30,143 nucleotides of DNA from Clostridia bacterium. GTDB lineage: Bacteria > Bacillota > Clostridia > Monoglobales > Monoglobaceae. A model generated the notes under the pieces. The model worked only from the letters and a program-made list of their open reading frames with translations. It did not search any database and was not told the DNA's origin. The stretch lies in NCBI GenBank assembly GCA_017409915.1, contig JAFQRU010000011.1:1-30143 (forward strand). The letters run 5' to 3'. Below are positions 10,442-20,589 of the stretch, one piece after another. Every line of letters starts with the position of its first letter. Positions within the stretch are counted from its first letter, which is position 1. The translations under genes and the position numbers were made by a program.

Positions 10442-10455
10442 AATTTTTAAAATAA

Positions 10456-10797
10456 TCAGTCGGTCTGTAAGCCGAGTTTTGTCATTTAAGACGGTCATCT
10501 ATCTAATATACGCATCACTGCGTATCTTAAGCCACCTTCCCGGGAGATGTCGGGCCGACTTAGCCTCCTCTATCAGGTGTTGCTTCGAGTGGGGTTTACA
10601 TCATCAGCAAGTCGCCATGCTGTGGGTGAGCTCTTACCTCGCCTTTCCACCCTTACCACTTTCGTGGCGGTATATTTCTGTTGCACTTTCCTTGAAGTCG
10701 CCTTCACAAGGTGTTACCTTGCACCCTGCCCTATGAAGCTCGGACTTTCCTCACGCACAGGATTACTCCTTATGCCCGCGACCGTCCAACCAACTGA
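10456..10797 (-). ncRNA. rnpB: RNase P RNA (bacterial, probably type A)
   Basis: The minus strand carries GAGGAAAGTCCGAGC, AGTGCAACAGAAA, GGTAAGAGC, TAAACCCC, AGATAGATGAC and ACAAAACTCGGCTTA. P1 pairs TCAGTTGGTT with GACCGACTGA. Confidence 0.97.
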
Positions 10798-15614: not shown

Positions 15615-16925
15615 TTATTCTTCTTCAATCTTTTCTTTAATTTCAACGGAGATTTCCTGAGCCATCAAGTCATTGGCTTTTGTTACGGTCATAACAACAT
15701 TTTCATATTCAAAAACAAAGCCCACATCAGGGATGTTTTCGCTATGCTCCGTAAGCCAGCCATTAACCGTTGTTGCCTCAGACTCCTCATCGGGGGTAAG
15801 GTCAAAGAATTCGTAAAAATCTTCTGTTGAGGTAGTTGATAAAACGGTATATAAATTATCGCTTATCTGAACAATATTGTCGATTTCCTCGTCTCTTTCG
15901 TCCCAGATTTCGCCGACTAACTCTTCGATTATATCTTCCATAGTAACAACACCTGACGGAACGCCGAATTCGTTAACGACAACCACCATATGAATATGTT
16001 CTGTCTGCATATCCTTAAAAAGAACATCAAGGTGGATTGTTTCAGGAACATAGCTTGGGGAAACCATAGCATCTTCAAGCTTAAATCCGTCTTTCCTGTG
16101 TTTTAAAAGATAGTCTCTTGCATATAAAATGCCAACAATCTCGTCTGCTGTATCTTTATATACGGGAATTCTTGAATATCCCTCATTTTCGATGGTTGCA
16201 AGGATTTCTTCTTCCGTTGCATCGTCCGCTATAAAGGTTATAGCCTTTCGCGGGGTCATAATGTCTGCCGCCGTGAGATTATCAAGCTTAAAGACATTTT
16301 TTATATACTCAATGTCGTCCTGGTCTAATGTTCCCTCGTCTGCGCCGGCATCAAGCATTATAACAATATCCTCTTCGGAAACCGCCTCGTCTTTTTCCTT
16401 AGGGTCAATCCCGAAAAGCCTTAAACAGCCGTTTGTTGAGATTGTTAAAAGCCAGATGATAGGTCTTAAAACAAGAGAGAGACCCGATATAAAACCGCAA
16501 ACCACTTCCGCAAGTTTTTCCTTATGGCGCATAGCAATACGCTTTGGCACAAGCTCCCCTAAAACCAGGGTAAAGAACGAAAGAATAAGGGTTATTATAA
16601 TAACCGAAAGGGACTCGATTATTCCAACACTTGCCTCTGATATTTCAAAGGTTTTTGTAAGAAAATCTGCTAAAAGTCCTGCAAAGTTATCAGCCGCAAA
16701 AGCTGAGCCTAAAAACCCTGCAAGGGTAATCCCTACCTGTATTGTAGATAAAAACGCTGTTGGCGATTCTATCATTTTAAGCATTTTAACCGCTTTTTTG
16801 TCACCCTCCTCAGCTCTTGCCTTAACCTTTTTCTCATTAAGAGAAATAACGGCAATTTCCGTGGCGGCGAAAAAAGCATTAAGCAAAATCAAAATAAGTT
16901 GTAATAACAACTGTCTGAAAATCAT
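15615..16925 (-). CDS. CNNM/HlyC-CorC family transporter (DUF21-CBS-CBS-CorC), probably in Mg2+ homeostasis
   Basis: NAFFAATEIA, GELVPKRIA, DIMTPR, GYSRIPVY and GVVTMEDIIEELVGEI motifs. The start MIFR follows GGAGGAG. Confidence 0.92.
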   Translation of the reverse strand: MIFRQLLLQLILILLNAFFAATEIAVISLNEKKVKARAEEGDKKAVKMLKMIESPTAFLSTIQVGITLAGFLGSAFAADNFAGLLADFLTKTFEISEASVGIIESLSVIIITLILSFFTLVLGELVPKRIAMRHKEKLAEVVCGFISGLSLVLRPIIWLLTISTNGCLRLFGIDPKEKDEAVSEEDIVIMLDAGADEGTLDQDDIEYIKNVFKLDNLTAADIMTPRKAITFIADDATEEEILATIENEGYSRIPVYKDTADEIVGILYARDYLLKHRKDGFKLEDAMVSPSYVPETIHLDVLFKDMQTEHIHMVVVVNEFGVPSGVVTMEDIIEELVGEIWDERDEEIDNIVQISDNLYTVLSTTSTEDFYEFFDLTPDEESEATTVNGWLTEHSENIPDVGFVFEYENVVMTVTKANDLMAQEISVEIKEKIEEE

Positions 16926-16972
16926 ATTTCTCCTCCAAATTATCTGTTGTTTTTCCAAAGATTAACTTTCTT

Positions 16973-17062
16973 TTAGCAACGGCGCCATATTACGCGGTTT
17001 TGCCAAAGCCCAGAACAATTCAGAGGCAATTCATAATCGCTACTTCGAGGTAACGGGTCCAC
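16973..17062 (-). CDS. Putative MgtL-like leader peptide, 29 aa (MDPLPRSSDYELPLNCSGLWQNRVIWRRC)
   Basis: GTG start 10 nt after SD AAGGAG, located between the promoter and the CNNM gene. The N-terminus resembles enterobacterial MgtL. Confidence 0.55.
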   Translation of the reverse strand: MDPLPRSSDYELPLNCSGLWQNRVIWRRC

Positions 17063-17109
17063 TAAAAACCAACTCCTTAATATAATTGATTATATCATCA
17101 CAAATAGAT

Positions 17110-17138
17110 ATTATACCACACTGTATTATAAATTTCAA
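17110..17138 (-). promoter_or_regulatory. SigA-type promoter for the leader and CNNM gene
   Basis: TTGAAA-17 nt-TATAAT with an extended -10 TG. Confidence 0.75.
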
Positions 17139-17779
17139 TAGGCATTTAAATACTCAGAAAGTTCCTCAATGCTGTCGCAGATTTTAATTGCTCCGCTTTC
17201 TTCAAGCTCTCCCTCTTCTGCATAGCCATAGGAAACCCCAACGCAGGGCACATTATTTTTCTTTGCCCCTATGCAGTCGTGCATTCTGTCTCCCACCATA
17301 ACGGGATTTTTGAAGTTTGGTGCATTTTCAAGGGCATATTTTATAACATCTGCCTTATCGTTTCTTGTTCCGTCAAATTCTGCGGCAGAAATGAATGAAA
17401 AATACTCCATAAGCTCAAACTTTTCAAGTATTTTGATAACGAAAGGGCGAGGCTTTGATGTGGCAAGAACAAGAGTTTTCCCGCTCTCTTTAAGGGTTTT
17501 AAGCATTTCTTTTACCCCGTCTATAAGCTCATTTTCAAAAAGACCTACCACAGAAAAGCGCTCTCTGTATTTTTCAACGCAATAGAGGGCGTCTTCACGG
17601 CTCATTCCATAATATTCCATAAATCCGTCAACTAATGGAGGGCCTATAAAGCGCTTTAACTTTTCCTGATCATTTTCTATTATTCCCTTTGATTCCAAGG
17701 CATATTTAACGCTTTTTGTTATCCCCTCTTCGGGAAGAGTCAGCGTCCCGTCGAGGTCGAACAGTATTAAATCATACAT
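17135..17779 (-). CDS. HAD-IA hydrolase (phosphoglycolate phosphatase / nucleotidase-like)
   Basis: FDLDGTL, ATSK and MVGDRMHD motifs. Confidence 0.9.
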   Translation of the reverse strand: MYDLILFDLDGTLTLPEEGITKSVKYALESKGIIENDQEKLKRFIGPPLVDGFMEYYGMSREDALYCVEKYRERFSVVGLFENELIDGVKEMLKTLKESGKTLVLATSKPRPFVIKILEKFELMEYFSFISAAEFDGTRNDKADVIKYALENAPNFKNPVMVGDRMHDCIGAKKNNVPCVGVSYGYAEEGELEESGAIKICDSIEELSEYLNAY

Positions 17780-17792
17780 AGTTTTTCTCCTT

Positions 17793-18398
17793 TTACAAGC
17801 CGAGATATTCTCTTAGTTTTTCTGCATCTCCGTCAAACAAATATCCCTTTATTCCTATCTTTTCTGCGCCTTTGATGTTTGTCTCACTGTCGTCTATAAA
17901 CAGGCACTCTTCTGCTTTTAGGTTAAACTCGCTGAGCAATTGCTCAAAAATCTCTCTGTCGGGTTTTACCTTTCCAACAGGCCCTGAAAAAACAAGTCCG
18001 TCAAAGCAGGAAAACAGTTCTTTTATCCACTCAGCTTCCATATATCTTTCTGCAAAGCCAATACTTATATTTGACAAAAGATAGAGTTTTTTATCAGTTT
18101 TGCGGATGTCATAAATCAGCTTTTCCATATTGGGAACGGGGGTTAAGGAATTTATCCAGTTGTCATACACACGGCAGGCAAGCTCCCCCGTTTTTTCATC
18201 TGTTCGGGAAAGAAAGCCCTCTTTAACCTCTTCGTCTGTTATGCTTCCGTCATCCAGTTTGTCCCAGTAAAGTCTGTCAAAGGCAATTTCGCTTATTTCC
18301 TTGCAAAGCTTTTCATCCTCCACAAAAGGTTTTGTCAGCTTTTCGGGATAAAACTCCGCCAAAACATTACCGAAATCAAAAATATAATTCTTAATCAT
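17793..18398 (-). CDS. HAD-IA family phosphatase (YihX-like)
   Basis: FDFGNVL, LLSN, KPD and FIDD motifs. The start MIKN follows GGGGAG. Confidence 0.88.
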   Translation of the reverse strand: MIKNYIFDFGNVLAEFYPEKLTKPFVEDEKLCKEISEIAFDRLYWDKLDDGSITDEEVKEGFLSRTDEKTGELACRVYDNWINSLTPVPNMEKLIYDIRKTDKKLYLLSNISIGFAERYMEAEWIKELFSCFDGLVFSGPVGKVKPDREIFEQLLSEFNLKAEECLFIDDSETNIKGAEKIGIKGYLFDGDAEKLREYLGL

Positions 18399-18420
18399 TT
18401 TTATCTCTCCCCATAGTATG

Positions 18421-18449
18421 ATTTTACCATATCGCACCCTAAAAAGCAA
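18421..18449 (-). promoter_or_regulatory. SigA-type promoter for the HAD genes
   Basis: TTGCTT-17 nt-TAAAAT with an extended -10 TG. Confidence 0.6.
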
Positions 18450-19878: not shown

Positions 19879-20589
19879 ATGTTAGACTTTTTAGAGTCTT
19901 GGGGTATTTTACTTAAAGCGGAGCTTTTGCTTCGAATTTTGCTTTCAGTTATATGTGGGTATTTAATCGGTAACGAGAGAACCCATCAGGGCAAGCAGGC
20001 AGGCGTTAAAACACACTCAATCGTTGCACTTGCTTCTTGTCTTATGATGCTTATTTCCCAATACGGTTTCGAAGATTTTTACAGCATGGTTAACTATCCC
20101 GAAGTGGGGATGAGACTTGACCCGTCAAGAGTTGCGGCTCAAATCATTTCCGGTATTGGTTTTTTGGGCGCCGGAATGATATATGTTCATAAAAACAACA
20201 TTACCGGTCTTACCACTGCGGCAGGCATCTGGGCAACAGCCGGAATTGGTATGGCAATTGGTGGCGGAATGTATTTTATAAGCATTGCAACCACCATCAT
20301 TATCGTTCTCGCTCAGCTTTTTATGCATAATAGTTCAAAAGTTCCTCATCTTCCAAAAGAAGAAAAAATCACTTTTGTTGTTGAAGACACCCAGGAAGCT
20401 ATCGACCTTATTTTAGAATCTTTATCAGAATATGAAGTCGAGGTTCTTAAAATAAGCTATTCAAAGCTTGAAGATGGACTTTTAAGCGTAACAACCAAGG
20501 TTTCATATGACGGTACAGACAAAGATAAGCTGATGCGACTTATTGCGGAAATACATAAAGAGGAAAAAATTAAATCTGCACAATATTAA
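19879..20589 (+). CDS. MgtC/SapB family membrane protein
   Basis: ER...AGVKTH, DPSRVAAQIISGIGFLGAG and GLTTAAGIW motifs, with an ACT-like C-terminal domain. Confidence 0.92.
   Translation: MLDFLESWGILLKAELLLRILLSVICGYLIGNERTHQGKQAGVKTHSIVALASCLMMLISQYGFEDFYSMVNYPEVGMRLDPSRVAAQIISGIGFLGAGMIYVHKNNITGLTTAAGIWATAGIGMAIGGGMYFISIATTIIIVLAQLFMHNSSKVPHLPKEEKITFVVEDTQEAIDLILESLSEYEVEVLKISYSKLEDGLLSVTTKVSYDGTDKDKLMRLIAEIHKEEKIKSAQY

Follow-up and report, generated by a model that had tools for sequence, protein, structure and literature searches.

A conserved Asp/Pro-rich leader reading frame upstream of clostridial CNNM/CorC genes as a candidate ribosome-operated switch for cation efflux

In Escherichia coli, translation of the leader peptide MgtL aborts within the motif MEPDPT, where an early nascent chain rich in aspartate, glutamate and proline destabilises the 70S ribosome at a stage when nothing yet fills the exit tunnel. 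Low Mg2+ increases this abortion, and bL31 and EttA modulate it. The acidic codons of MgtQ govern the release of the mgtB ribosome-binding site (RBS), and MgtP and MgtL have proline codons that can report proline or translation capacity. As to exporters, E. coli CorC has been reported to carry an N-terminal destabilising sequence and YoaL promotes the translation of MgpA, and the regulation of CorC/MgpA-type exporters is described in the literature as unclear. To our knowledge, how bacteria turn on Mg2+ efflux is essentially unknown, and the sensors that have been described, the M-box, MgtL, MgtQ and PhoQ, all govern import. Here we describe a previously unannotated upstream open reading frame (uORF) in a 30,143-nucleotide (nt) stretch of DNA from a member of the Clostridia (contig JAFQRU010000011.1, positions 1-30,143, in assembly GCA_017409915.1, family Monoglobaceae; the whole stretch is referred to as the window). 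The uORF lies 47 nt in front of a gene for a CNNM/CorC-type transporter, and its peptide, MDPLPRSSDYELPLNCSGLWQNRVIWRRC, begins with MDPLPRS and ends with RRC.

The reading that we favour, to which we assign a probability of about 55%, is a ribosome-operated switch in which completion of the leader turns the exporter on, with a logic inverted relative to that of MgtL. The two parts of this reading do not carry the same weight. That the leader is translated and that its completion unmasks the Shine-Dalgarno sequence (SD) of the exporter gene seems to us quite probable on the comparative and thermodynamic evidence set out below. That Mg2+ or total polycation is sensed through the stability of the ribosome is drawn by analogy with MgtL, and we put it forward tentatively, at slightly less than even odds. 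Full-text searches of the literature found no description of the MDPLPRS leader or of acidic CNNM leaders.

Conservation of the leader reading frame

The leader is present in seven of the nine genomes of the same genus. In the distant members of the genus, conservation at the DNA level is found only in the block from the SD to codon 8 and in the last codons; insertions and deletions in the genus alignment come in multiples of 3 nt and keep the frame, giving ORFs of 28-29 codons. A degenerate pattern (SD-N(4-14)-[AGT]TG GAY CCN YTN CCN CG) applied to 151 genomes of the order found 10 sites, against none for the reversed pattern. Two of the ten sites lie outside the genus and combine the codons GAT CCT TTA CCC with a TTG start and a CNNM orthologue downstream. 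A stricter pattern, in which the first seven codons including CGAAGT were fixed save for the wobble positions, was applied to one genome per species and returned at least 119 loci. Nearly all of the matches listed are metagenome-assembled genomes (MAGs) of gut or rumen Clostridia, labelled Acutalibacteraceae, Oscillospiraceae, Ruminococcaceae, Butyricicoccaceae, Lachnospiraceae and Eubacteriales. The matches listed comprise 107 unique leaders, and a CNNM subfamily with the N-terminus ..KQLLLQLILILLNAFFAATE.. is encoded directly downstream in 114 of 119 loci among them. As for the loci without a CNNM gene, among 80 of the loci three ran off the DNA that had been fetched and two are evident chance matches in other phyla (L089 and L093); a locus in a Thermoanaerobaculia MAG (L033) gave no uORF call. 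Conversely, CNNM orthologues found by protein search alone, with 74% and 67% identity (L140 and L141), also carry the uORF. The uORF is linked exclusively to one CNNM subfamily, and in a subgroup of leaders it overlaps the CNNM start by 8-14 nt.

The family has a characteristic architecture. Across 43 representatives of sequence clusters a GGAG lies 8-10 nt upstream of the start and is followed by a spacer with the consensus UGGUUUU. The start codons are mostly weak, with GTG in 82, ATG in 14 and TTG in 11 of the 107 unique leaders. The uORF then varies in length from 22 to 88 codons, and from codon 8 up to the final pair of codons the residues of the peptide are not conserved; none of the peptides has a hydrophobic segment. 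The conservation at the peptide level that a preliminary description of this locus had anticipated is thus found in MDPLPRS (codons 1-7) and in the last two codons, and does not extend to the remainder. The motif itself places an aspartate at position 2 and prolines at positions 3 and 5, so that three of the five residues after the initiating methionine of MDPLPR are Asp or Pro, with one acidic residue only. It closes with Arg6 as CGA and Ser7 as AGU, both of which are rare in the window, where CGA accounts for 18 of 264 Arg codons (7%) and AGT for 58 of 537 Ser codons (11%) in the long ORFs.

The pattern of variation points to selection on the reading frame. Relatedness among the genomes makes p-values overstate their independence, and the 43 sequence clusters were used for this reason, to lessen the effect. 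Across these clusters Asp2 is written as GAT or GAC, Pro5 uses all four Pro codons, and Leu4 is written with five different Leu codons and never replaced by Phe, though the pattern permitted Phe. Beyond codon 7 the median open length of the uORF frame is 29 codons, and that of the two alternative frames 5 and 6. The uORF frame is the longest of the three in 36 of the 43 clusters, with a summed log10 probability of -37 given base composition. These evolutionary signatures argue that selection acts on the translation of the uORF and not on the body of its peptide.

At the other end of the uORF, the penultimate codon is an Arg CGN codon in 26 of the 43 clusters, CGT in 17 of them (examples are found in L021-L139), and the final sense codon encodes Asn or Cys in 33 of 43, with UGA serving as the stop in most. 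This C-terminal Arg-(Asn/Cys)-stop may have an effect on termination or recycling, or may reflect a constraint on the RNA. No explanation for it was found, with termination-arrest peptides among those considered.

Predicted pairing with the exporter ribosome-binding site and organisation of the locus

All structures discussed here are thermodynamic predictions, and the CNNM starts in distant homologues are likewise predicted. In both the minimum-free-energy (MFE) and the centroid fold of the window's leader, the anti-SD segment in the middle of the uORF, GCCUCUGAAUUGUUCUGG (17027-17010), pairs with ACAGAUAAUUUGGAGGA (16947-16931) at the translation-initiation region of the CNNM gene. The duplex has an energy of -17.8 kcal/mol (z -2.6). 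The same arrangement recurs across the family: in 94 leaders, 75% of the pairing mass of the exporter SD goes to the interior of the uORF and 2% to the intergenic spacer. The best duplexes between uORF and initiation region have a mean z of -1.6 relative to shuffled uORFs, involve codons ~13-20 and always lie upstream of the stop. The SD core cannot co-vary, and for this reason the flanks were used to test for co-variation. The body of a uORF pairs better with its cognate CNNM initiation region than with the median non-cognate one in 93% of cases, and over the 43 clusters the comparison of cognate with non-cognate pairing gives a mean z of -1.71 (Wilcoxon p 1e-11). An RNAalifold consensus of 14 diverse leaders contains a single helix, between RCCUUY in the uORF and GGAGGY, the flanking pairs of which change on both sides. 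The helix frequently extends into a second stem, for instance between AAAUGUGU and ACACAUUU. The fold energy of the whole leader is not unusual (z only -1.4), which precludes any argument from overall stability.

The element to which the preliminary description had drawn attention was a different one, a stem that spans the end of the ORF. Such a stem is indeed present in the MFE fold as an inner hairpin over the uORF stop, enclosed by the anti-SD:SD helix, and pairs UUUGGCAA with UUGCUAAA. It is kept only partly in the relatives L002-L005, as judged from the alignment by eye. This stem was rejected as the key structure because it is weakly conserved even within the genus; the conserved element is the helix that joins the uORF's middle part to the CNNM RBS. 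Two further candidates, a conserved pairing partner for CGAAGU and a hairpin of UGGUUUU with GGAYCC around the start codon, were sought by eye and nothing convincing was found.

A ribosome was modelled by folding each leader with a 28-nt stretch forced to be single-stranded. Over 41 clusters, the mean probability that the exporter SD is unpaired was 0.21 in the free leader, 0.23 with the P-site on codon 5 (within MDPLP) and 0.56 at the best ribosome position (median codon 13). The ensemble values for the window were 0.00 in the free leader, 0.01 on codon 5 and 0.73 at the best position (codon 9). In this model the SD of the window is freed by a footprint over codons ~9-17, and its accessibility is back to 0 from codon 19 on. 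The predicted geometry is clear: a ribosome halted on MDPLP would leave the exporter RBS shut, and one that goes further would open it.

Searches for known regulatory elements argue against a familiar riboswitch. There is no intrinsic terminator between uORF and CNNM gene in the window, nor in L140 and L141, and RNAalifold revealed no conserved aptamer-like structure besides the anti-SD helix in the 14 leaders. Rfam gave no match in the window at the gathering threshold, none in 16800-17300 at E-values up to 10 and none in 20 related leaders, a null result that speaks against a known riboswitch. The enterobacterial Mg sensor RF01056 (mgtA leader RNA) has no match in the window, and the M-box RF00380 is absent from the window and from the whole 81%-complete genome. 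What stands of the earlier comparison with MgtL is therefore a conserved ORF tied to CNNM/CorC genes, with Asp/Glu/Pro-rich kin that resemble MEPDPT; the match to RF01056 or any other Rfam family and the terminator are missing, and the predicted logic is reversed.

The whole feature lies on the minus strand (Table 1), and the promoter, the AAGGAG, the GTG-started ORF of 29 codons and the gap of exactly 47 nt (16972-16926) between uORF stop and CNNM start are all present as initially reported. The sigma-70-type promoter agrees with the consensus at 11 of 12 positions, includes the TG extension and is shared with the genus relatives L002 and L003. The leader may have two transcription start sites because a second extended -10-like element lies downstream of the first. 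Two tandem HAD-family phosphatase genes end against the -35 box of the leader; no terminator separates them from it, so that their transcription could possibly read through into the leader. The mgtC gene that had been noted nearby is present, and is irrelevant to the leader; it lies on the opposite strand, behind trpB. The window also encodes a bacterial class A RNase P RNA.

The gene downstream of the leader encodes a protein with a CNNM (DUF21) domain, a CBS pair and a CorC_HlyC domain (Pfam E-values of 3e-50, 1e-14 and 9e-11, respectively). Its nearest solved structures are 7M1T/7M1U (E 2e-43), deposited as 'Hemolysin, contains CBS domains', together with the CorC-domain entries 7CFF-7CFK, deposited as 'Hemolysin'. 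We take the former to be archaeal CorB and the latter bacterial CorC, both Mg2+ transporters. The CNNM family reaches as far as humans. The product is probably an exporter of Mg2+ or another cation, and its gene is probably the one that the leader regulates.

Table 1. Features of the leader locus and its surroundings in the window
Feature	Position	Strand	Details
Sigma-70-type promoter	17110-17138	-	-35 TTGAAA 17138-17133; 17-nt spacer; extended -10 TGgTATAAT 17118-17110
Second extended -10-like element	17089-17097	-	TGaTATAAT; 21 nt downstream of the main -10
uORF Shine-Dalgarno sequence	17073-17078	-	AAGGAG; 10 nt upstream of the start codon, then conserved spacer UUGGUUUUUA
Leader ORF (uORF)	16973-17062	-	GTG start 17062-17060; 29 codons; TAA 16975-16973
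N-terminal motif M-D-P-L-P-R-S	17042-17062	-	Codons 1-7; invariant; proposed pause/abort site of elongation
Anti-Shine-Dalgarno segment	17010-17027	-	uORF codons 12-18; MFE and centroid folds
Inner hairpin over uORF stop	16972-17007	-	17007-17000 with 16979-16972; MFE fold
Last two uORF sense codons	16976-16981	-	
CNNM translation-initiation region	16923-16947	-	ACAGAUAAUUU-GGAGGAG (SD 16936-16930); ATG 16925-16923; pairs with anti-SD segment
CNNM/DUF21-CBS pair-CorC_HlyC transporter gene	15615-16925	-	436 amino acids; Pfam
Two tandem HAD-family phosphatase genes	17135-18449	-	
mgtC	19879-20589	+	
RNase P RNA class A, bacterial	10452-10797	-	276.9 bits

Proposed mechanism and rival explanations

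The proposed switch would work as follows. In free mRNA, codons 12-18 of the uORF would pair with the exporter SD and keep the gene shut. After initiation at the GTG, a ribosome would first meet the invariant M-D-P-L-P-R(CGA)-S(AGU), Asp/Pro-rich and with rare codons, at a time when its exit tunnel is still empty, and we infer that this motif limits elongation. Pausing or drop-off there would leave the helix closed and no exporter would be made, whereas a ribosome that moves onward would melt the helix over codons ~9-18, leaving the exporter RBS briefly free for translation. In the subgroup in which uORF and CNNM gene overlap, the same dependence would arise through direct coupling. Mg2+ or polycation is the likely signal under this scheme because early Asp/Glu/Pro-rich chains abort more often on destabilised ribosomes, low Mg2+ being one such condition, as is established for MgtL, MgtQ and E. 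coli N-termini. High cytoplasmic Mg2+, or a high total polycation level, would let the leader be finished and turn the exporter on, and a low level would lead to abortion and keep it off. By analogy with MgtL and mgtA, of which it would be the mirror image, production of an exporter at high Mg2+ would make a sensible homeostatic loop for efflux.

Several observations weigh against this reading or limit its reach. With a single acidic residue, MDPLPRS is a weaker match to a destabilising motif than EPDP of MgtL or the starts of other CNNM leaders of the MDD type (MDDSPLPERS and the like), which fit the definition of such motifs better; pausing at proline and rare codons, at the step from P-site Pro to CGA, may weigh more here, and polyamines or EF-P capacity are live alternatives as the signal. 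The substrate of this CNNM subfamily is presumed from relatives, among which CNNM proteins export Mg2+ and PaeA exports polyamines. That the uORF is translated is likewise suggested by evolutionary signatures only. The CGAAGT of the large set was imposed by the search pattern and its invariance is shown only in the smaller, unbiased sets; CGA and AGU do turn up again in distant leaders and in the sets collected without fixing them. The exporter SD is only slightly less accessible in the leaders than in their mononucleotide shuffles (0.23 compared with 0.29, p 0.005), a gap that is small because a G-rich SD pairs readily. Finally, the model gives no account of the conserved C-terminal Arg-(Asn/Cys)-stop.

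The rival that survives best is a constitutive translational coupler, which would do no more than deliver or unfold the mRNA for translation of the CNNM gene; nothing would be sensed at the N-terminus, and MDPLPRS would serve efficient initiation or some housekeeping role. What the data themselves show is an anti-SD helix that has to be translated through, the subgroup with an 8-14 nt overlap looks like classical coupling, and in E. coli YoaL, whose ORF overlaps yoaE, is required for yoaE translation with no known signal. However, a coupler requires neither an invariant stretch of seven residues beside a freely drifting remainder nor rare CGA/AGU codons behind a weak GTG or TTG start, and it does not account for the convergence of unrelated CNNM leaders on starts rich in Asp, Glu and Pro. 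We consider a pure coupler somewhat unlikely.

Alternatively, the same ribosome-pausing step could sense something other than Mg2+, such as proline or charged tRNA-Pro, EF-P, polyamines, ATP/ADP via an EttA-like factor, or a small molecule that induces arrest on the MDPLPRS nascent chain. The two prolines among the first five codons, followed by rare codons, would suit such a signal, as would the precedents of MgtP and MgtL, whose Pro codons report proline or translation capacity, the modulation of early pauses by EttA and bL31, and the CNNM relative PaeA, which exports polyamines that also stabilise ribosomes. On the other hand, there is no PP or PPX motif with a strong need for EF-P, nothing ties the CNNM gene to proline metabolism, and the wider class of leaders discussed below is dominated by acidic residues rather than by proline, which points to ribosome destabilisation. 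A signal of this kind we regard as unlikely.

A structured non-coding RNA with an incidental ORF, be it an unclassified riboswitch or a protein-binding leader, would explain why GGAG-UGGUUUU-GUG-GAYCCG...CGAAGU is highly conserved in its nucleotides and why a long-range helix sequesters an SD as in many translational riboswitches; yet the variable positions are synonymous ones, Leu4 taking five Leu codons and never Phe, the frame of the uORF remains open against odds of ~1e-37 while the other frames close, indels preserve it, neither Rfam nor the consensus fold betrays an aptamer and the whole-leader z is only -1.4, which makes this explanation very improbable. That the ORF encodes a small protein acting in trans, for instance as part of the CNNM transporter or as its regulator, is barely credible, as only the first seven and the last two residues of peptides of 22-88 amino acids are conserved and a hydrophobic segment is lacking, even though the ORF always adjoins a CNNM gene and MgtR and MgtU, small membrane peptides that regulate Mg2+ transporters, offer a precedent.

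Acidic CNNM leaders and comparison with known systems

The MDPLPRS leader appears to be one branch of a wider class. In a sample of 80 genomes drawn evenly from the Clostridia, the 500 nt that precede the best CNNM homologue contained an SD-preceded uORF with an Asp/Glu/Pro-rich start in 29 cases in the sense direction and in one of the 80 in antisense. These leaders begin with MDDSPLPERS, MDDSPSPRS, MDDSPGGLRSS, MDDIPEDIRSS, MDDGDIRSS, MDDYPADLQS, MDDEPGETE, MDDSSDGDNHKD, MSDDDSDSS, MEDTADSDSESE and MDDSSDGD..., among others. One of them, L168, reads GAT GAT TCG CCT TTA CCT GAG CGA AGT where the window has GAC CCG TTA CCT CGA AGT, that is, the codons of the window with three extra ones, and on the strength of this alignment MDPLPRS is a shortened member of the acidic set. 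A crude finder detected a terminator-like hairpin in 17 of 26 acidic leaders and none in the MDPLPRS leaders. In 16 of the 17 terminator-bearing leaders the stop codon of the uORF falls within the hairpin, at its foot or 3' of it. In the MDPLPRS branch SD sequestration stands in place of the terminator. With the uORF stopping at or in the terminator in one design and the helix lying inside the uORF in the other, both predict that full translation turns the gene on.

The organism's own MgtE importer gene (L220:480-560, contig C31) has a consensus-like promoter and a plain, short and unstructured 5' untranslated region, with neither an M-box nor a leader ORF, and CorA was not found in the 81%-complete assembly. 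CNNM homologues that lack a leader ORF often have an acidic or proline-rich N-terminus of their own (upstream windows L142-L219), such as MSDDGSIPLQ, MGDDGSIPLQ, LSDDPLLW, MDDPGPANF or MDGDLWTQ. These are reminiscent of the destabilising N-terminal sequence that E. coli CorC is reported to have, and they could simply reflect an extracytoplasmic N-tail. In one genome a cluster of tRNA genes is directly followed by a CNNM leader of the MDD type (L204:263-501).

Taken at its broadest, the proposal would be that in Clostridia the translating ribosome gauges free Mg2+ or polycation for efflux, by means of Asp/Glu/Pro-rich leaders that only sufficiently stable ribosomes would complete, in front of at least a third of the CNNM genes and with an output that evolved twice, as terminator read-through and as anti-SD melting. 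We offer this extension with more reserve than the switch itself and consider it possible rather than likely. If it is true, the leader would mirror MgtL on the efflux side and give CNNM/CorB exporters their first Mg2+-responsive regulator. A leader that ties exporter synthesis to the completion of a difficult N-terminus would offer a testable mechanism of CNNM regulation, and would widen ribosome destabilisation by nascent chains from a few enterobacterial cases to much of the gut Clostridia. A practical merit of the MDPLPRS branch is that its proposed sensor of 7 codons and its output of one helix are short, separable and easily mutated. More generally, unannotated regulatory ORFs that start with GTG or TTG are hidden in many seemingly empty 5' leaders of these genomes.

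How does the MDPLPRS leader compare with systems already described? It is kin to the clostridial acidic CNNM leaders, with which it shares a CNNM gene downstream, an SD-preceded uORF, a start like M-D-D/S-P-L-P-E-R-S, an often-kept CGA-AGU Arg-Ser pair and the prediction that reading to the end means on. They differ in relying on an intrinsic terminator and thus on transcriptional control where the MDPLPRS branch has the anti-SD helix, and the latter has lost all acidic residues but one. YoaL-YoaE (MgpA) of E. coli and Salmonella also places a small uORF with a Met-Asp start before a CorC-domain cation exporter whose translation needs it; however, YoaL (L222:3074-3232 in E. coli K-12) is a basic protein of 52 amino acids (MDRHRRHF...) that overlaps the yoaE start by 13 nt, YoaE has a TerC-type membrane domain, and there is no evident homology between YoaL and the MDPLPRS leader. 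In attenuation of the pyrBI type in E. coli, a leader ORF runs over an inhibitory structure and a ribosome that keeps up turns the gene on. There the signal is the pausing of RNA polymerase when UTP is low, with a terminator as the structure, whereas here the variable would be the progress of the ribosome through the first codons and the structure hides an SD.

MgtQ, a Salmonella uORF of 8 codons between mgtC and mgtB with destabilising acidic codons, shares with the MDPLPRS leader a principle of translational control in which the translation state of the uORF decides whether an RBS is released from an inhibitory stem-loop; in the thermodynamic model the exporter RBS is likewise sequestered and releasable by translation of the uORF. 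In MgtQ, destabilisation promotes expression of an importer via alternative stem-loops from an intergenic position in the operon, whereas in the MDPLPRS leader the uORF itself holds the anti-SD, passage of the ribosome should activate, and the element resides in a 5' leader. With MgtL (mgtA in E. coli and Salmonella) it has in common that a short ORF lies in the 5' leader of a gene for a Mg2+ transporter and that, as proposed here, the ribosome itself is the sensor; its N-terminus, met with an empty tunnel, resembles the Asp/Glu/Pro-rich one of MgtL in part, and the two also share P-L-P-R. MgtL works through a choice of stem-loops and Rho-dependent transcription termination of an importer gene, and abortion at low Mg2+ turns that gene on. 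The MDPLPRS leader has an exporter-type CNNM target, it would act by SD sequestration and abortion is predicted to keep the gene off; it shows no homology to MgtL in sequence or structure and belongs to the Clostridia. Ribosome-mediated leader-peptide switches are an already known kind of device, and what would be new in this one is the exporter target, the inverted logic, the clostridial lineage and a uORF that itself carries the anti-SD.

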